NCBI GenBank assembly: GCA_964409875.1
Contig: CAYPEN010000003.1
Span: 557 to 64,556 of the forward strand
Source: an uncultured Gammaproteobacteria bacterium
Lineage (GTDB): Bacteria > Patescibacteriota > Microgenomatia > Levybacterales > GWA1-39-11
Direction: 5' to 3'
DNA: 64,000 bases
Below the pieces are notes generated by a model. The model was not told the DNA's origin and searched no databases. It was given only the letters and a program-made list of their open reading frames with translations. Below, piece after piece: positions 1 to 10,467 of this stretch (positions within the stretch are counted from its first letter, which is position 1; each line of letters begins with the position of its first letter). The position numbers and the translations under genes were made by a program.

Positions 1-714
1 GATATAATAATTCTAACGATTGAGGAAATCGACAAGATAATCAATACGAAGCTCGATTATGGTAGCCAGTATGGTAAGGATATGTCTTTTCTTGATTTTA
101 GATACAGAACTTTAGTTATGTTTTTGGCAGAAACTGGTTGTAGATATGGAGAAGCAGAAAACCTTTTAGTTAAAAGAATTGATATTAGTGCTGGAAGAGC
201 AACTTTTGTAAATACAAAAACTAACGAAAACAGAAGTGTGTATTTTACTGACCCTCTAAAATCAGACCTAGCGAAACTTATTGAAGGGAGAAAACCAAAT
301 GACCATGTATTTCGCAACTCTAAAGAAATACAGGTAAGAGCATCAGATTTCAGCCAGGATTTGAAAAGGCGAGCGAAAAAAGCTGGAGTGATGAAAAGAG
401 TACACCCACATATTTTCCGTCATTCTTATGCTACCCACATGCTAGAGACTGGAGTTCCAGAAACACAGGTCGCTTCTCTTGGAGGCTGGAAAGATATTAG
501 AACCCTTTATGAAGTATATGCGCATCTTGCAGATAGGACTTTAAGACAGGCGGCCATGAGACATCCATTGGTTAGAAAAAATATAGACCCCCGAGAAATA
601 TTAAGGATAGTAAAGGAAGGCATCGACAAGTATCATTTAGATGAAGATGGGAGATTCGATGTTAAATTGAGTGTGGGCAATAAAGGTTTATCAATAACTA
701 TTGATATCTTATGA
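1..714 (+). CDS. tyrosine recombinase / phage-type integrase, 5' end truncated by window edge (reading frame open from nt 1)
   Basis: Catalytic box II region HPHIFRHSYATHMLETG...LGGWKD...LYEVYAHL (R..HxxR..Y pattern of XerC/D-lambda Int family); earlier Arg in TGCRYGEA; frame 1 is open from position 1 to the ORF. Confidence 0.85.
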   Translation, partial: DIIILTIEEIDKIINTKLDYGSQYGKDMSFLDFRYRTLVMFLAETGCRYGEAENLLVKRIDISAGRATFVNTKTNENRSVYFTDPLKSDLAKLIEGRKPNDHVFRNSKEIQVRASDFSQDLKRRAKKAGVMKRVHPHIFRHSYATHMLETGVPETQVASLGGWKDIRTLYEVYAHLADRTLRQAAMRHPLVRKNIDPREILRIVKEGIDKYHLDEDGRFDVKLSVGNKGLSITIDIL

Positions 715-888
715 TTTTAGCCTGGAAGTCATTTTGAGAATAACTCCACAGCCTCTAACCACAAGGTGCTCAGTTCGTCATAATTCTTCGCGTGAATCCA
801 CGAATAAACAACACGTGATTTATAGCAAGGACTGGTATATGTATACTTTTCATTTTTTCTCCTCTTAAATCGCAAAATAGCGTAACTT

Positions 889-1170
889 CTAAGCACAAAT
901 TTGCTTTAAAATTTCACTGTCTAGACGAAGAGTTATAAATTCTCCGTCTTGTGTATTTTTTAACAATTTAAGTACATTTTTTTTAGCAACTTTTCTTCCA
1001 GACAACTTAGTTTGTTGAATTATGAAATGTAGGAGTGGATAGTCACCAATTACATCCCACTTTGGACTAATTCTTAAATCCTTATATATGGAAAAAAGCG
1101 TAGCTTTCCTTATAAGTGAAGTTCTAATAATAGATTTAGTAGATTGTAAATCCTGATATTTGTAATTCAT
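889..1170 (-). CDS. hypothetical protein (ORFan, island cargo)
   Basis: 93-aa ORF, co-oriented with two upstream minus-strand small genes; no recognisable motif. Confidence 0.35.
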   Translation of the reverse strand: MNYKYQDLQSTKSIIRTSLIRKATLFSIYKDLRISPKWDVIGDYPLLHFIIQQTKLSGRKVAKKNVLKLLKNTQDGEFITLRLDSEILKQICA

Positions 1171-1312
1171 AAATACTCTTACACGTGCATTAAATGCTTT
1201 TAATGCACTAAGTTAATTGTTTATTTAATGATTATATTTGTAGGAACTCAGTTTCCCTATGATAGTGAAATTTATTTCTCTATCTCCAGAAATTGATTTC
1301 TCCCCTTGCACA

Positions 1313-1630
1313 TTATTCATATACCCTTAATTGACCTAATTCATAAAGTAAACCTGTGAAGTAGTATGAATTATGTTGTGGGTGTTTACCTGCCTTTTTC
1401 CAACCAATAAGCCTGTTGTCTTTGAGCTCTTTTAGCAAATTACCGATTTGTCTCGTAGATACGCCAATATCCTTTGCAAGAGTGCTTCTACTAGGAAAAC
1501 ATCTCCCGTCAAGACCTGCATATAGCAATAGGTTCATAAGTAAAAGCCTTGCTGTGGGAGAGATATTATTATCCCTAAGCACTTCTCTTAATCCTTCAAA
1601 ACTAATTTTGTATGTTTGACCGTCTTCCAT
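1313..1630 (-). CDS. helix-turn-helix domain protein (phage/plasmid replication-regulator-like)
   Basis: SRSTLAKDIGVSTRQIGNLLKELKDNRLI is a classic HTH (wHTH) segment as in DnaD-like/HTH_36 phage proteins. Confidence 0.5.
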   Translation of the reverse strand: MEDGQTYKISFEGLREVLRDNNISPTARLLLMNLLLYAGLDGRCFPSRSTLAKDIGVSTRQIGNLLKELKDNRLIGWKKAGKHPQHNSYYFTGLLYELGQLRVYE

Positions 1631-1724
1631 AGTCTTTATACGAAAAAGGGTTCGTTTTAATGCTCATGTATTAACTTTAAGCACTAAAACGAACCAAACA
1701 ACACTTACCGAAACTACTATTTAG

Positions 1725-2033
1725 CTAGTCTTTTTTTTGTCGGTATTTTTTTCGCAAATCCTCAATAACTCTTTGTTTTTCTTTCACTGCCTCGTGCATC
1801 ACATTGTCTATTTGTGTCGCAAGTTCATTCTCTTTGGCTTTTTCTGCAAGCTCTTTCAGCCAAGAGGGAGGAACAGCAATAAACGAATTCTCAACGTTAT
1901 AAACGTGAGCATACAAAGGAAAAACGTTTCTGTTGAAATCATTTTTAATCGCGGAGGCACTGGTTTTTGTTTTTGAATTAGAAAGTGCAGAAGCACTTTT
2001 CAATTCAATCTTAATACCAGCAATAAATGACAT
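1725..2033 (-). CDS. hypothetical protein, coiled-coil C-terminus
   Basis: 102-aa ORF, first gene of a leftward operon leaving the divergent promoter region 2034-2241. Confidence 0.35.
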   Translation of the reverse strand: MSFIAGIKIELKSASALSNSKTKTSASAIKNDFNRNVFPLYAHVYNVENSFIAVPPSWLKELAEKAKENELATQIDNVMHEAVKEKQRVIEDLRKKYRQKKD

Positions 2034-2091
2034 GGAGTTAGTATACCATTACTGCGGTATGGTGTCAAGTGCCAAAATAAATCTGCCTTTT

Positions 2092-2100
2092 TGCTATAAT
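2092..2100 (+). promoter_or_regulatory. extended -10 promoter element TGcTATAAT
   Basis: TGCTATAAT at 2092-2100 in divergent intergenic region; would place TSS about 2107, upstream of the GC-rich element. Confidence 0.3.
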
Positions 2101-2139
2101 AACCTTAATTAAGTTGCCTAAACTTACAGAAATGTAGGC

Positions 2140-2243
2140 ATGGCAGAGAAACGTTCAACGCAAAGAACCCTCGTCAGGGCGCGTTGAACGTCATGTTTCC
2201 GAAAGGGGCATGGGGCCGAAAGGCCTACTGACGGGGGCTTTTT
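2140..2243 (+). promoter_or_regulatory. GC-rich structured RNA element (riboswitch-like leader or small RNA); strand not certain
   Basis: About 58% GC over 100 nt in an AT-rich genome. Stem A is 10 bp perfect: CGTTCAACGC (2152-2161) with GCGTTGAACG (2181-2190). Stem B is CCCTCGTCAG (2168-2177) with CTGACGGGGG (2228-2237), 10 bp with one G-U; it crosses stem A, giving a pseudoknot or alternative fold. Two CCGAAAGG GNRA hairpins (2199-2206, 2214-2225). A U-run follows at 2238-2243. Confidence 0.35.
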
Positions 2244-3075
2244 GATAGCCCGAGATTTAACAATGGAAATCCCAAACTGGATTAAAAGTTATTGGAAAAA
2301 AAGTAAGTTCTCCAAAGCTGTTGTTATGATACTTGCTATGATTTTATGGCCAATAACTGCAGTGATTATATGGACTTCAATAAAAGGAGTAAAAAAAGAA
2401 TGGAAGAGGAAAATTTTACAAAGTATCTTCATATTCTTATCAGTTCTTTTTTTAATAACCTGGCTAGTATTTGCACTGGGAATTGTAGTTTCAAATAAAA
2501 ATAAATCGAATGTAAGCAGTGTCAGTCCTACACCTATGCTTACTCAGCAAGGTGATTGTCTTGGGCCAGACGGGAAATGGATACAATTAAGTCCCGATGA
2601 ATGTCAGAAATTCAACGACGCATGGAAAAACCCTCCCCAACAAAACCAAGAACAAACGCAGGCACAACAACCTACATCTACACCAGTTATAAGCAAGGAA
2701 TATGACAAAAACAAAGGAAACAACTATGTAGCGGCACAGGCAGCAGAAGCTATGCAGAGCATAATAGATAAAGCCGCTGAAGGGGCAGTGTTAAATGTAT
2801 TCATTGAGCTTTCACCAGAAGACCCAAGTGGAAAAACAGAAGAAGAATATAAAGGCTCATTGACCAGTGCATTTGTACAGATTCAAGTATCTCAATCGTT
2901 CTGGAATAGCTTAACTGATGATTACAAGAAGGATTTGGTTGCAAGCTTTGTAACCAGTGTAGGAAATATTTTCCCAAGACCCTATCCTCATGTTTACGTA
3001 AACAATGGAGTACGCGAAGTAGCAACGGGAGAATACAACCTGCTTAAAAGTGAGGCTCAAGTTAAACTGAAATAG
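2242..3075 (+). CDS. membrane-anchored protein with Gln-rich linker and C-terminal extracytoplasmic domain (alternative start ATG 2263)
   Basis: Two to three N-terminal hydrophobic helices, then a QQNQEQTQAQQ linker and a 150-aa soluble domain; no known motif. Confidence 0.45.
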   Translation: MIARDLTMEIPNWIKSYWKKSKFSKAVVMILAMILWPITAVIIWTSIKGVKKEWKRKILQSIFIFLSVLFLITWLVFALGIVVSNKNKSNVSSVSPTPMLTQQGDCLGPDGKWIQLSPDECQKFNDAWKNPPQQNQEQTQAQQPTSTPVISKEYDKNKGNNYVAAQAAEAMQSIIDKAAEGAVLNVFIELSPEDPSGKTEEEYKGSLTSAFVQIQVSQSFWNSLTDDYKKDLVASFVTSVGNIFPRPYPHVYVNNGVREVATGEYNLLKSEAQVKLK

Positions 3076-3393
3076 GTTTTCGACAAGAATTTTTCCCTAT
3101 TTTTTCAAAGCGACTTTTAGGAAAACCTATAATGGCCGAGAATTGACTTCGTCTATAGTAGGTTAATCTAATAATAGAAAATCCGACCAGGCCCTATATA
3201 TACTTAGTAGAAGTTTTGAAATATAAATCAGAAACAGACATTAACTTAGTTGATTCTTATCAAATATTATAAACTCTTATGTCTTTTGATGAAAAACTAT
3301 ATAAACTTTGTATACAAAATATATACATTTATATTTTATTGATATATTTTTTCCTGAAATATCATACTCGATTTGTTAGAATAGTCGTTAAAT

Positions 3394-3957
3394 ATGGCAA
3401 AAATCTCGACAGACCACCTGTACTCGCTCAATTTTGAGTACTTAATGATGATGTTGTTTCCGAAGGGAGATAGTCCTGTTGCATCTTTTGCAGACGATGA
3501 GCAATATGTTAAAACATGGTTGAGAAAAGCAATTAAGAAGTTTATCAAAGAAGTTAACACACTCGATACAACTCAAAGACATAAAGATGTATTGATACTT
3601 CATCTTGAGAGCATAAACCGTCGATTAAACGGTGGAAACATTTGGGAGATAATTTTTGATTTATTCAACGTAATAGCTCGACTATTTGGCTACGATTATC
3701 ATAAGGGTCAAAAGCTTTTAACAGCTATATATTCAGAAACACCTTATCAACATTTTTGGAGTGGATTGCATGCGGGTGAAGACTGGAAAAAGCAAAACGG
3801 AATAAGAGAATCTTTTATCAGAAAAAGGATAGAGTTAATTAAGCAGTTGAAAAAAGATGGGTATTCGACTTTTGATATATCGCAGATATTCAATACAACT
3901 GACTACGAAATCAAGAAAATACTTAGAGAAACGAGCCGAAGTAAAAGGGAAAAGTGA
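3394..3957 (+). CDS. hypothetical protein, possible C-terminal HTH
   Basis: 187-aa ORF; the C-terminal DGYSTFDISQIFNTTDYEIKKILRE resembles a sigma region-4-like HTH (weak). Confidence 0.4.
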   Translation: MAKISTDHLYSLNFEYLMMMLFPKGDSPVASFADDEQYVKTWLRKAIKKFIKEVNTLDTTQRHKDVLILHLESINRRLNGGNIWEIIFDLFNVIARLFGYDYHKGQKLLTAIYSETPYQHFWSGLHAGEDWKKQNGIRESFIRKRIELIKQLKKDGYSTFDISQIFNTTDYEIKKILRETSRSKREK

Positions 3958-4074
3958 TGCATGGTTTCATAGCGTGAAAAGTGGAACTATAAGACACTCC
4001 ATTTTTTTATCTAGCTTCAAAACTGATTTTATGTCGCATAACTAGCTTCATTTTTATGTCTTAGAATATTTATT

Positions 4075-4581
4075 TTGCGTCATGAGATATGGTTTGATAT
4101 AGAGCTTCAAATTAAACACACATATTTAAAAAGAGCATTTGCTATAATTGAATTAATGATTGTCAATATATTAATTTCTGTAGTAGCTTATCTTGTTTTA
4201 ATGTATGTGAGCGTTAATTTACTGGGTCTTCTTGTAAGAGGCTTGTTTACAAATCCTGAACTCGATAAATTAAAAAGCGAAGGACACGAATTCATTAAAA
4301 AAGAAATTGAAAAATCCCAGCGAGCTGACAAATGGATTAATGTTTTTGCACTGATATTAATCATTGGGTATTTTTATGCGTTGTTTCATTTTTGGAATAT
4401 AGGAGTGGTTGCAGTGGCGATAATAATTATGGTGGGAAGACTACCTGATTTAGTATGGGAGATTAAACATGGGAAAAAAGTTGACCCTAATTTGATGAAG
4501 CATAATGCAATGTACTACATTACGTCTTTTTTACCATGGATTGGATTACCTCTTTTGTATTACTTTCTCTATGTAATCTAG
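4075..4581 (+). CDS. hypothetical integral membrane protein (about 4 TM)
   Basis: Hydrophobic helices IIELMIVNILISVVAYLVLMYVSV, INVFALILIIGYFYALF, GVVAVAIIIMVG, YYITSFLPWIGLPLLYYFLYVI. Confidence 0.4.
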   Translation: MRHEIWFDIELQIKHTYLKRAFAIIELMIVNILISVVAYLVLMYVSVNLLGLLVRGLFTNPELDKLKSEGHEFIKKEIEKSQRADKWINVFALILIIGYFYALFHFWNIGVVAVAIIIMVGRLPDLVWEIKHGKKVDPNLMKHNAMYYITSFLPWIGLPLLYYFLYVI

Positions 4582-4585
4582 GAGT

Positions 4586-5065
4586 ATGAGCATCGATTTA
4601 ACTAAAAGAGCAGAAAAACTTGACAATATGCGTTTGAAAGGTATGGCCGAAAAATTATCGCTAGAAGAGGCTGAAAATATTGTATCAGTTTGGGGAGTAC
4701 ATCTTGAGCATATGGGTGGTATTAGAATGCTTTTTGGGATTAGTATTCCCGAATCAATTCTGCCTTATCCAATTGTTATTCTACAGGGCGCTCTAAATAA
4801 AATGGAAGCATATTATCATGCACAAGGTATACATGATAGGGTTAAACTTCTTGAGAGTACTGAAATGGAGCTTATGCAATATACAACTGATGAAGAGGCG
4901 ATAAAGGAAGCATTAACAAATTTGGGTAATAATAAAATGAAGGATGTTTTAATTGAGGGTCTTAAAGATTATCAAAAAACCCAAATGGAAAATGGCTATT
5001 TAGTAGATAAGAGACTCTTTAAACTAAGTAAACCCCGTATAGAAGAACTTATAAAAGACATTTAG
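4586..5065 (+). CDS. hypothetical protein
   Basis: 159-aa ORF starting 5 nt after the preceding gene; no known motif. Confidence 0.4.
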   Translation: MSIDLTKRAEKLDNMRLKGMAEKLSLEEAENIVSVWGVHLEHMGGIRMLFGISIPESILPYPIVILQGALNKMEAYYHAQGIHDRVKLLESTEMELMQYTTDEEAIKEALTNLGNNKMKDVLIEGLKDYQKTQMENGYLVDKRLFKLSKPRIEELIKDI

Positions 5066-5189
5066 GAAAATTAGCTTACAGATGATGGGCGCATTTATTA
5101 GGAAAAACCGATAGATTTTGTCTCCAAGAAAAATACTCCTTAATTATTCTGAGCAGGGTGCAATTTTTGGCTTCAAAGCAGGCTATTGA

Positions 5190-5198
5190 TGTTATAAT
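5190..5198 (+). promoter_or_regulatory. extended -10 element TGtTATAAT abutting the start codon (possible leaderless transcript)
   Basis: TGTTATAAT at 5190-5198, only 6 nt before ATG 5205. Confidence 0.3.
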
Positions 5199-5204
5199 CC
5201 TGGT

Positions 5205-6278
5205 ATGCAGAAGAGGTCAATTAAGAAAGCAAAATTTAGAAGACGACAGGTAGAAAGAATATTTAAATACGAAGTCAGTAAAAGACTTTATCTAAAAAAG
5301 GCACGGTACGAAAGGCTTCCAAATAGAATTAAACAGGGCAGAGGAAGAAGATTTATAAATGATTCTAAACACGTTAAGCAGGAAATTTGTGAGGCCCCTG
5401 CTACATTTTCACTAATTGAAAATACTACAGAAGTGATATCTTATTTTGATAAAGCCAAGAAATCCCTTGCGACAGATATACCAGTCGATTTTGATTTAAG
5501 CAAGATTGTAAAAATGGGACCTGAAACCCTAACATATTTATGTGCCTTCATTAATGAAGATAAACTTACGCACAACACCGCCCTCAAGGGCAATACGCCA
5601 AAAGACCCAAAAGTAAAGGAAATGTTCCAGAAGTCAGGCTTCTATAATTTTGTGATGTTAGATTCAGTACCTGAATATTATAGCAGGGAAATTGCTGATG
5701 ATATGATTCATAGAATAACAAGGGAAAAAGTAGAGTCTGAATTGGCAGGTTTAGTTTGTAAGGCGGCTATGAAACATTCGTTTGATAGCGAGGATTTTAA
5801 AAAGCAAAACTTCTATCCAATCTTGATTGAGTGTATGGCTAACACACTGAACCATGCTAATTACATAAACAAAGAAGAAATTTATAATTGGTGGCTTCTT
5901 GCTTACAAAGAGCCTAACACAAAAATTACAAAATTTTGTTTTATTGATTTGGGAGTAGGTATATTTAGTTCGTTGGAAGATAAGTACAAAAAAAAGAAAC
6001 TGGCCGAACTATTAAAATGGTTTATTCCAAATAAACATAAGGAAACTTTAGAGAGAATATTTAAAGGTGAGAGAAGAACATCTACAAAGAACTTAAGAGG
6101 GAGAGGGCAAGGGCTTAATTACATTTATCAACTCGTTAAAAAAGATGGAACAATTAAGAATTTTACACTCATAAGTAATGATATTATTGCTAAAATCGGG
6201 TATAATACAGGGGACAAGATTGTGAAAATGAATAAAAATTTCATTGGGACAATGTATTATTGGGAAATAGCTCCGTAA
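5205..6278 (+). CDS. GHKL-superfamily ATPase (anti-sigma-factor serine-kinase-like) with basic 200-aa N-terminal extension
   Basis: Bergerat-fold motifs: N-box ECMANTLNHAN, G1 FIDLGVGI (DxGxG), G2 GRGQGLNYI (GxGxGL). The N-terminus is K/R-rich. Confidence 0.6.
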   Translation: MQKRSIKKAKFRRRQVERIFKYEVSKRLYLKKARYERLPNRIKQGRGRRFINDSKHVKQEICEAPATFSLIENTTEVISYFDKAKKSLATDIPVDFDLSKIVKMGPETLTYLCAFINEDKLTHNTALKGNTPKDPKVKEMFQKSGFYNFVMLDSVPEYYSREIADDMIHRITREKVESELAGLVCKAAMKHSFDSEDFKKQNFYPILIECMANTLNHANYINKEEIYNWWLLAYKEPNTKITKFCFIDLGVGIFSSLEDKYKKKKLAELLKWFIPNKHKETLERIFKGERRTSTKNLRGRGQGLNYIYQLVKKDGTIKNFTLISNDIIAKIGYNTGDKIVKMNKNFIGTMYYWEIAP

Positions 6279-6613
6279 TTATGAACTACACAGATATAAA
6301 AATTGCTGAAGATTTTAGTATTTACCCTGGTGCAAGATATAAGACTGATGGTAATTTCTCGGGAGAGCAGTTTTATGAAGATTTATTAAAGTCTAAACTA
6401 ACCGAAATTTGGGACGATGAGGATAAAGGAATAAGAATTGATTTTGATGGTACCTTTGGATACGCATCGTCTTTTATATCAGAAGTATTTATTAGAACCG
6501 TCAAGGATTTTAAAGACAAAAAAAAGATTAAAAAAAAGCTAGAATTTAAATCTGATGATGAGCCGTTATTAATAAAAGCGATTTTGCAAATAATAGACGA
6601 GGCAGAGGAATAG
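6260..6613 (+). CDS. STAS-like small protein (anti-sigma-antagonist-like, DUF4325-type)
   Basis: 117 aa; IRIDFDGTFGYASSFISEVF resembles the STAS phospho-serine loop (DxSGVxFxDSSGL). The start overlaps the upstream stop by 19 nt. Confidence 0.5.
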   Translation: MGNSSVIMNYTDIKIAEDFSIYPGARYKTDGNFSGEQFYEDLLKSKLTEIWDDEDKGIRIDFDGTFGYASSFISEVFIRTVKDFKDKKKIKKKLEFKSDDEPLLIKAILQIIDEAEE

Positions 6614-7200
6614 TGAGATTTAATAAAACGACATTATTAGTTATATTATGTATTTATCTCTTTGGTGTAATATCTGGGGCTTTTCTGAATGATATTCCAA
6701 ATATTACTTTTAAAAAAGAGATGTCTTTGGGTGAAACCGCAAATTTTATTTTAGCCGTATTTATTGCTATATATATACCTTTTTTCCTCGATAAGAAAAT
6801 TAATAACAAAAGAATTGAGAAGGATATCATTATACAAGCCAGTGGTAATTTAAATGGTGAATTATATGATTTAAAGAAAACAATAATTGACCCTCTTCAC
6901 GTTTCTCAAAGAATAGTTAAGCAAAGCGAGGTCAAAACTATACTAATCAGAACCAGGAGTATAAGCAATATGTTGGGCCTATTAATAAAAAATGTTAAAC
7001 CCTATGTATCAGATAAAGATATAAAGAAAATTACAGAGGAACTTGAGAATAACCAACTTACATTTTGGACAGACTTAACCTTCAATCTTAAAGACAAAAA
7101 TCCTAAAATTACACAAGAGGTCTATCTTCGAACAGAGAAAAATATAAATACTTATTCAGGGAATATATCCGCTTTGATAATGCGTATTAATGGTTTTTGA
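6613..7200 (+). CDS. membrane protein, two N-terminal TM helices plus soluble domain; GTG start overlapping the upstream stop by 1 nt
   Basis: TLLVILCIYLFGVISGAF and ANFILAVFIAIYIPFFL helices; 1-nt overlap (taGTG) indicates translational coupling. Confidence 0.5.
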   Translation: MRFNKTTLLVILCIYLFGVISGAFLNDIPNITFKKEMSLGETANFILAVFIAIYIPFFLDKKINNKRIEKDIIIQASGNLNGELYDLKKTIIDPLHVSQRIVKQSEVKTILIRTRSISNMLGLLIKNVKPYVSDKDIKKITEELENNQLTFWTDLTFNLKDKNPKITQEVYLRTEKNINTYSGNISALIMRINGF

Positions 7201-7456
7201 GTGATTTTATATTATATTGACTTCTGAATTCTAAACTGCTAAATTCATCTTGTACTTTGAAGACATAAAAACACTTTCTGTTTCAAGGAGTGTGTAATAA
7301 GTATTTGAAGCTAAAAACAAGTCCTGTCTTATAAATCCCTGCATTTCTAAGGCAAAAAAACTAGGCGGAATACTGCATGTCTGTCGCCATTTCAAGACAG
7401 AAGAATAAAATTTCTCAGATTCGATAGGATTTTGCGAAAGTGATATTATAGCTCGT

Positions 7457-10321: not shown

Positions 10322-10467
10322 GTTTTCGAAAAGTAAGCAAAGCTTGCTTTTCGAAATATTAACAATATGTTTACTTATTTTTGGAAAGTAAGCAAAGCTT
10401 GCTTTCCAATATCTACTATATGCCTACTTGTTTTCGAAAAGTGAGCCAAAGTTTGCCCCAAAATGAT
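10322..10467. repeat. three imperfect direct repeats (period 56 and 52 nt), each with hairpin AAGCAA-agc-TTGCTT
   Basis: Copies at 10322-10359, 10378-10415 and 10430-10467 (the third degenerate). Copies 1 and 2 share GTAAGCAAAGCTTGCTTT. Confidence 0.6.

Follow-up and report, generated by a model that had tools for sequence, protein, structure and literature searches.

The left end of the window, as the whole 64-kb stretch of DNA analysed here is called, is occupied by part of an integrated mobile element (Table 1). The 17-nt sequence ATCCCTGCATTTCTAAG, which sits within an imperfect repeat of about 40 nt, is found at the 3' end of ftsZ on an identical Logan contig (L001:8480-8600, - strand, equivalent to a window coordinate of about -505) and again at the right end of the element. 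These repeats indicate that the element is 7.85 kb long and is inserted in the 3' end of ftsZ. The element supplies a new C-terminal coding end for ftsZ, and the displaced old end is found at 7320-7365. Proteins identical to those of the window were seen on Logan contigs of SRR11845634 and SRR11845619. A blastn comparison of the element with GenBank phages and PLSDB plasmids gave no match. The genes form a leftward block and a set of rightward cargo ORFs, and the RNA described below, LOOT, is internal to the element, in the divergent promoter region. The product of the first cargo ORF has no Pfam or PHROG match.

Farther to the right in the window, at 10323-10465, a 35-nt palindromic unit, TTTTCGAAAAGTAAGCAAAGCTTGCTTTTCGAAAT, occurs three times with spacings of 55 and 53 nt. 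The copies span the gap between two minus-strand ORFs and overlap both ORF ends. This segment has a GC content of 33%, folds with -41.8 kcal/mol (z = -6.3) and has no Rfam match; the units could be a REP-like or miniature repeat element.

Table 1. LOOT, its parts and the genes around it. Positions are those of the window.
Feature	Position	Strand	Basis and remarks
Integrated mobile element with LOOT	1-7351	.	17-nt repeats and protein families; cut by window start
Tyrosine integrase	82-714		cut by window start; full 340 aa adjoining ftsZ on identical Logan contig L001
93-aa ORF	in leftward block of element	-	ORF list
HTH_36/replication-initiator-like ORF	1313-1630	-	protein family search
Divergent 102-aa ORF	1725-2033	-	ORF list
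Sigma-70-like promoter of 102-aa ORF, TTGACA-17-TATACT	2068-2040	-	back to back with LOOT promoter
Extended -10 element, TGCTATAAT	2092-2100	+	read from sequence; implied transcription start ~2107-2110
LOOT per Rfam RF03000	2115-2226	+	cmscan
P1 domain	2115-2145	+	cmscan alignment; P1 = 2115-2118 with 2142-2145; internal loop UAAA / CAU
P1a hairpin capping P1	2123-2128 with 2133-2138	+	loop GAAA; covaries in homologs
P2, 10-bp helix	2152-2161 CGTTCAACGC with 2181-2190 GCGTTGAACG	+	exact reverse complement; loop carries strand A
Strand A of pseudoknot, CCCTCGTCAG / CCCUCGUCAG	2168-2177	+	sequence, alignments, energy versus shuffles
P2a, alternative local hairpin	CCCU (first 4 nt of A) with AGGG 2176-2179	+	4 bp
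P3 hairpin	2192-2212	+	invariant GAAA loop 2201-2204
P4 hairpin	2213-2226	+	loop GAAA here; GNRA or other sequences in homologs
Strand B of pseudoknot, CTGACGGGGG / CUGACGGGGG	2228-2237	+	starts 2 nt past Rfam model end
Single C nucleotide, then U-tract (TTTTT)	U-tract 2239-2243	+	directly after B; can pair with AAAGA 2162-2166
Weak C element, AGCCC	2246-2250	+	complementary to GGGCU 2235-2239; z = -0.8, not significant
First downstream cargo ORF	2263-3075	+	270 aa, N-terminal membrane segments; gene call on identical Logan contigs
Seven cargo ORFs	right of LOOT, rightward	+	ORF list
attR, ATCCCTGCATTTCTAAG	7335-7351	.	17-nt exact direct repeat

The RNA was noticed as a GC-rich block at 2140-2243. 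Its GC content is 55.8%, slightly less than the 58% or so given in a sequence-only reading of the same DNA, against 35.2% for the whole window. A cmscan search of the whole window gave a single Rfam match above the gathering score, to the family LOOT (RF03000). The match scores 72.3 bits, compared to a gathering score of 46.4 (E = 1e-11), and covers the model over its full length, from position 1 to 121. The cmscan alignment contains all six helices of the model, P1, P1a, P2, P2a, P3 and P4. The GC-rich block is a full-length copy of this known family, and it is the only copy in the window. The suggestion of a small structured RNA, made from the sequence alone, agrees with the type that Rfam gives to LOOT, 'Gene; sRNA'.

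The LOOT motif was defined in a survey of 224 candidate structured RNAs (Weinberg et al. 2017, PMC5737381) and was later presented as a metagenome-based family in the Rfam 14 paper (PMC7779021). Two covarying pairs were added to it in Rfam 15, and CaCoFold gives it about 43 base pairs in six helices. In the papers searched, no function assigned to LOOT was found. The family itself is known, but its 3' pseudoknot strand and its genomic context, described below, may be new.

The 5' boundary of the RNA in the window is at about 2108-2115, 25-30 nt upstream of the start given in the sequence-only reading. That reading missed P1 and P1a (2115-2145), but rightly extended the element past the end of the Rfam model to include strand B and the U-tract. 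The extended -10 element that it proposed is present, and has no good -35 partner, so that it is absent from the output of a consensus promoter scan. Most of 152 homologous loci have a -10-like hexamer (at least 5 of 6 matches) that lies 13-21 nt before the first nucleotide of LOOT. A right-anchored profile of the 60 nt upstream of LOOT contained little positional information because of indels. By eye, a loosely conserved ACAATTnAAT-like stretch can be seen about 10-25 nt upstream of LOOT in many loci; in the window it is AACCTTAATTAAGT at 2101-2114. This stretch, between the -10 element and P1, may be the transcript start or an operator.

The perfect 10-bp stem of the sequence-only reading is P2, and its two GNRA hairpins (CCGAAAGG at 2199-2206 and 2216-2223) are P3 and P4; P1a carries a third GAAA loop. 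The P1 domain of the window reads UGCCUAAAC-CUUACA-GAAA-UGUAGG-CAUGGCA and contains the conserved CCUAAaC ... GCAUGG internal loop. In the window P2a has just 4 bp, and cmscan flags non-canonical positions within it. The ATG start codon placed at 2242 and its proposed Shine-Dalgarno sequence are not supported; position 2242 is a TTG inside the U-tract, and gene callers start the ORF at the ATG at 2263.

Homologs were collected with pattern scans for the P1 motif, which produced at least 120 metagenome loci and 92 genome loci. About three quarters of the metagenome matches listed, and 85 of the 92 genome loci, are true LOOTs. The pattern fixes P1, so that the homolog sets sample part of the LOOT family only and the invariance of P1 within them is by construction; the P1 motif is nevertheless in upper case in the Rfam consensus. 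The homologs come overwhelmingly from metagenome-assembled genomes (MAGs) of Patescibacteria (CPR). This distribution suggests that the DNA of the window, too, belongs to this lineage. Among the matches listed with titles there are 72 true genome loci, 50 of which are named for Patescibacteria/CPR lineages (Levy-, Uhr-, Gottesman-, Yanofsky-, Doudna-, Woese-, Roizman-, Nomura-, Saccharibacteria and others). The rest comprise nine records named 'bacterium', 12 from a TPA MAG series with the unverified label 'uncultured Gammaproteobacteria' and one named for Lentisphaerae. Matches in records named for other phyla were attributed to chance. The metagenome sources include 0.1-um-filtered groundwater and a fermentation metagenome.

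In the viral collection IMG/VR, the P1 pattern gave two matches, both below the Rfam threshold, one of which (L004) is only a P1-like fragment, and the A...B motif gave one true viral contig with LOOT (L218). LOOT is rare in this collection, since the two scans found one true contig between them. On L218, LOOT is positioned between leftward genes for a ParB-methylase, terS, terL and a serine integrase, and rightward restriction-modification-like genes.

Several Patescibacteria MAGs contain two LOOT copies on different elements (L135/L167, L141/L187, L165/L179 and L185/L197). L135 and L167, the one pair compared in detail, share contig CAZAOT010000002.1; their pseudoknot strands are nearly identical and their P2 sequences differ. 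LOOT-like P1/P1a domains (CCUAAAC...GCAUGGCA...AAAAC) without P2-P4 and B were found at L066:2679-2821, L080:8384-8523 (the same as L201) and L004:1884-1969, and score 25-43 bits with model R1, which is described below. The P1a of L066 is common to the full LOOT of L020, and the two diverge right after AAAACCGA. These copies could be degenerate, could mark recombination breakpoints or could belong to a second family with the same receptor domain. A repeat, CATTCCTAAACTTCATCTGGTAGACACACTGCTGCATGGCAGTCAAACCTTGT..., that occurs in many contigs of a few metagenomes (L010, L011, L027, L032, L045, L046, L049, L073, L083, L095, L101 and L113) matched the pattern by chance and was discarded as not LOOT.

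The LOOT region is the most stable 140-nt stretch of the window on either strand. The claim of the sequence-only reading that nothing else in the window has comparable structure density is correct as to rank, but the margin is small (-51.3 kcal/mol compared to -47.5 kcal/mol for the next unrelated stretch). The fold has a z-score of -3.8 to -4.0, and none of 200 shuffles was equally stable. The long-range helix between strands A and B, which the reading had described as a second 10-bp helix forming an H-type pseudoknot or a mutually exclusive fold, consists in the window of 10 bp, with one G-U and eight G-C pairs, and is followed by C and UUUUU. Its energy is -21.6 kcal/mol. None of 2000 shuffled tails (-8.5 +/- 2.75 kcal/mol) reached this value, and of 9,140 20-mers sampled from the window just 2 did so. 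The nested minimum free energy fold of 2108-2244 picks this helix.

The A:B helix is conserved and covaries in two homolog sets that were collected independently. Set A1, a MAFFT alignment of 78 metagenome sequences, has 12 A:B pairs with 93.5% of cells paired, and 11 of the 12 show double-sided changes; one of these pairs is GC in 37 sequences, CG in 21, UG in 11 and UA in 5. The support for A:B in A1 equals that of any helix annotated in Rfam. Set A4, from genomes, contains 82 true matches and 6 weak ones, and was aligned with R1, a covariance model that treats the columns of A and B as unpaired and so does not bias the alignment towards the pseudoknot. Here the nine core A:B pairs are 93.5% paired and eight of them show double-sided changes. 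Two U-G wobbles are conserved in both sets. A/U pairs lengthen the helix.

The remaining helices are likewise conserved and covarying in the 78 metagenome and 82 genome homologs. For the whole structure, the covariation score is 0.47-0.54, compared to 0.17-0.19 in shuffles (0/500), and 86-90% of cells are paired, compared to 67-69% (0/500). Double-sided changes occur in 38-40 of the 45-47 pairs. These whole-structure measures collapse in both sets once the 3' partners are slid by 1-3 columns. All pairs of P2 show double-sided changes (helices 3 and 4 in the covariance model alignment of homologs). P3 is 96-98% paired and covaries, and its loop is GAAA in 81 of 82 genome and 76 of 78 metagenome homologs (157/160). 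P2a is 82% paired with some covariation. Strand A therefore appears to have two alternative partners, strand B in the pseudoknot or the local P2a, which leaves room for both of the folds that the sequence-only reading had offered.

The canonical 11-nt receptor for GAAA tetraloops is CCUAAG/UAUGG, and the tetraloop/receptor module is known from group I and group II introns and from RNase P. The P1 internal loop, CCUAAAC...GCAUGG, is one that we take to resemble this receptor. The LOOT version, CCUAAA-C / G-CAUGG, differs mainly in that an A-C replaces the canonical G-U. By this analogy, the GAAA loop of P3 probably docks into the receptor-like loop of P1. If so, the tertiary contact would account for the near-invariance of both the P1 motif and the P3 loop.

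Directly after strand B, at least five of the next eight nucleotides are U in 82 of 82 homologs, with the consensus GCUUUnUGUUU. The window shows the same succession of a GC-rich helix and a U-tract that characterizes intrinsic terminators. Judged by pairing and covariation, A:B is a conserved H-type pseudoknot that resembles an intrinsic terminator. It is absent from a hairpin-terminator scan because the helix is long-range and pseudoknotted.

In many loci, sequences downstream of the U-tract mimic parts of LOOT. Element C is a Watson-Crick complement of B found within 45 nt after it, with z < -2 in 60% of 77 loci. In effect it repeats A, minus the wobbles; it is positioned directly after the U-tract and changes in step with B. 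Element D is a 16-nt copy of 'AAAC + P2 5' strand', located 20-45 nt after the U-tract. Allowing up to three mismatches in the 16 nt, it is present in 20 of 164 loci, compared to 1 of 164 for a shuffled query. For the pairing of D with the 3' strand of P2, z is below -3 in 10% and below -2 in 18% of the loci, and the paired region stops 1-6 nt short of the downstream start codon. D represents a three-way covariation, because P2 varies between loci and D tracks P2. This argues for a link, by RNA-RNA pairing, between the fold of LOOT and translation initiation. Loci bearing D include L081, L134, L096, L120, L127, L140, L143, L195, L198 and relatives of L008 and L055.

In the window itself, element C is weak (Table 1) and D is at chance level (UUUAAC at 2255-2260). 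No extra target-like sites for B or for the P2 3' strand beyond those expected by chance were found in the 64 kb. The pairings B:C and P2-3':D were examined as targeted duplexes, as an unbiased RNAduplex run of whole LOOT against the downstream 100 nt gave sprawling, uninformative interior-loop duplexes.

The gene neighbourhood was studied in 151 non-redundant LOOT loci. The downstream neighbour is co-oriented with LOOT in 124 of 137 loci, with a median gap of about 50 nt, and the upstream neighbour is divergent in 89 of 135. A recombinase gene lies within 6 kb of LOOT in 78 of the 151 loci. Where the sequence extends for at least 3 kb to either side of LOOT, the figure is 19 of 25 loci (17 serine and 3 tyrosine recombinases). 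Twelve loci have a large serine recombinase gene whose end is 36-40 nt upstream of LOOT. Genes for terminase, ParB-methylase and SpoVG recur nearby. The downstream genes of 92 loci belong to 44 unrelated Pfam families, the largest of which, DUF4352, has six members; DUF805, DUF5067, restriction-modification methylases, Ltp and nucleases are also among the cargo. When proteins of the island in the window were sought beside other LOOTs, only the integrase and HTH_36 recurred. The lack of a conserved protein partner suggests that LOOT interacts with the host machinery or with a host signal.

On balance, these observations are best read as those of a leader that is at once a small RNA and, by means of a pseudoknot terminator, a gate on the expression of the cargo, a reading that we favour with some reserve. 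The plus strand at 2108-2244 encodes the LOOT RNA, which heads the rightward transcription unit for the cargo of the 7.85-kb element. Strand A, in the loop of P2, pairs with the G-rich strand B directly after P4 to give the H-type pseudoknot. Since B is directly followed by the U-tract, the pseudoknot should act as an intrinsic terminator, releasing an RNA of about 130 nt and keeping RNA polymerase out of the cargo genes. Read-through into the cargo would occur if A were withheld from B, either by the local P2a or by some factor bound to the exposed loop of P2. The 4-bp P2a is far weaker than A:B, so that a switch relying on the RNA alone would terminate nearly every time. In the read-through RNAs of many homologs, element C may capture B. 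In a subset, D, which overlaps the start codon of the first gene, may be sequestered by the 3' strand of P2, so that the fold would be coupled to translation.

Several points speak against this gating mechanism. It would be unusual for a terminator helix to cross P2 and to have about 50 nt between its strands, and the conserved U-tract could have a role other than termination. There is neither a conserved partner protein nor a clue to a ligand, the downstream genes are unrelated, and the C and D elements of the window are not significant. As to the sequence-only proposal of 'a riboswitch or attenuator', its second half is favoured, indirectly, by the -10 element, by the U-tract in every one of the 82 homologs and by the co-oriented downstream ORFs, and its first half is disfavoured by the unrelated downstream genes. 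The best current description of LOOT is 'attenuator and/or small RNA'.

A broader proposal, which we put forward only tentatively, is that LOOT is the common RNA 'gate' of a large and diverse population of integrative elements and prophages of Patescibacteria. It would be a pseudoknot-terminator switch that either senses a host signal or serves as an RNA immunity factor like P4 CI, P1 c4 and IsrK, with the hypervariable P2 and D possibly providing element-specific self-recognition.

The terminated 130-nt LOOT could also be, first and foremost, a trans-acting 'immunity' RNA that pairs, through B-C and P2 3'-D, with read-through or incoming copies of the same transcript and in this way sets termination or translation, the hypervariable P2 and D being the element-specific determinant of specificity. 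The RNA has its own promoter-like site and a terminator-like 3' end, it is typed as an sRNA in Rfam, and its two triplets (A, B and C; P2 5' strand, P2 3' strand and D) mirror the logic of seqA, seqB and seqC in P4 (PMC4825925). The position of D over the start codon, its variation in step with P2 and the two copies in one genome, L135 and L167, which share A and B but differ in P2, all fit such a role. We nevertheless consider it unlikely as the main function. B and the P2 3' strand are already engaged in helices of 10-12 bp, so that pairing in trans would require strand exchange. Moreover, no more than 10-18% of loci have D and 60% have C, and the window has neither in significant form, nor any other target-like site in its 64 kb.

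That LOOT is a metabolite or ion riboswitch, in which a ligand stabilizes (OFF) or prevents (ON) the pseudoknot terminator and the element in this way reads a host signal, seems improbable. The downstream genes, from DUF4352 and DUF805 proteins to restriction-modification methylases, Ltp and nucleases, share no pathway, whereas those of a riboswitch would be tied to one ligand; they fall into the 44 unrelated families mentioned above. The most conserved nucleotides are plausibly a tetraloop and its receptor and not a pocket, and no riboswitch family of Rfam 15 matched. The leader position, the aptamer-like multi-helix fold with its pseudoknot and adjoining terminator-like signal, and the conserved purine-rich joining regions are what could be expected of a riboswitch.

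It is very improbable that LOOT is a processive antitermination element acting on RNA polymerase, like the put RNA of phage HK022, that makes the polymerase ignore terminators in the downstream cargo. In its favour are the position of LOOT directly after a promoter-like site, heading long variable operons on phage-like elements, and its independence of any conserved element-encoded protein. However, the 3' strand of LOOT itself builds a terminator-like helix, the opposite of what is expected, and there is no sequence or structural similarity to put.

Lastly, a function at the level of DNA, as a recombinase att site or a single-stranded DNA origin, is scarcely credible: despite the strong association with integrases (78/151 and 19/25 loci), the serine recombinase genes that end just upstream in 12 loci and the DNA inverted repeat formed by B and C, LOOT occurs with both serine and tyrosine integrases, the conserved U-G wobbles of A:B would be A-C mismatches on the opposite strand, and the GNRA loops, six covarying helices, promoter and U-tract point to a plus-strand RNA. 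The att repeats of the window element are 2.6 and 5.1 kb away, at the ftsZ 3' end and at attR; they map to the element ends and LOOT is internal, which rules it out as the att site of this element.

LOOT has so far been an orphan Rfam family built on fragments of metagenomes, and the literature searched assigns it neither an organism nor a context or function. The window and about 160 homologs add a host lineage, the Patescibacteria, and a home on integrase-bearing elements at the head of a cargo operon. They also add to its anatomy a covarying pseudoknot with a terminator-like signal and downstream mimic sequences, and with these come mechanisms that can be tested. CPR bacteria are poorly tractable and, to our knowledge, almost nothing is known of their gene regulation. 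LOOT marks, and possibly controls, mobile elements of CPR bacteria. It offers a practical way into this subject and could be used to find such elements in MAGs. If the broader proposal of a common RNA gate is correct, no regulatory mechanism of CPR mobile elements would have been described before it, and the combination of a tetraloop-receptor core with a pseudoknotted terminator would be a new architecture among leader-derived regulatory RNAs.

Compared with the Rfam description of the family, the window copy agrees over its full length, including the conserved CCUAAAC/GCAUGG motif and the GNRA loops. The Rfam model ends at P4, whereas the window and its homologs add the 3' strand B and the U-tract. 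Rfam types the family as an sRNA, whereas here LOOT is the leader of cargo genes on integrase-bearing Patescibacteria elements.

The fluoride, preQ1 and SAM-II riboswitches are pseudoknot riboswitches with terminator or Shine-Dalgarno expression platforms. Like them, LOOT has an H-type pseudoknot in a leader, with the 3' strand abutting an expression signal; unlike them, it has heterogeneous downstream genes and no suggested ligand, and its fold is different. The RNAs P4 CI, P1/P7 c4 and Gifsy-1 IsrK are derived from the leader of the operon that they control and have upstream and downstream complementary copies (PMC4825925). Like LOOT they are leader RNAs borne on prophages or similar elements, and their complementary copies have counterparts in the C and D of some LOOT loci. 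They act by termination or through the ribosome-binding site (PMC4825925), as LOOT is predicted to do. LOOT is not homologous to them in sequence or structure, and the Rfam family C4 (RF01695) was not matched. It is a larger RNA that has a pseudoknot and a tetraloop-receptor-like core, and C and D are absent from many of its members, including that of the window. By analogy, P4 CI, c4 and IsrK appear to be the closest functional counterparts of LOOT and the pseudoknot riboswitches the second closest, neither likeness being one of homology.
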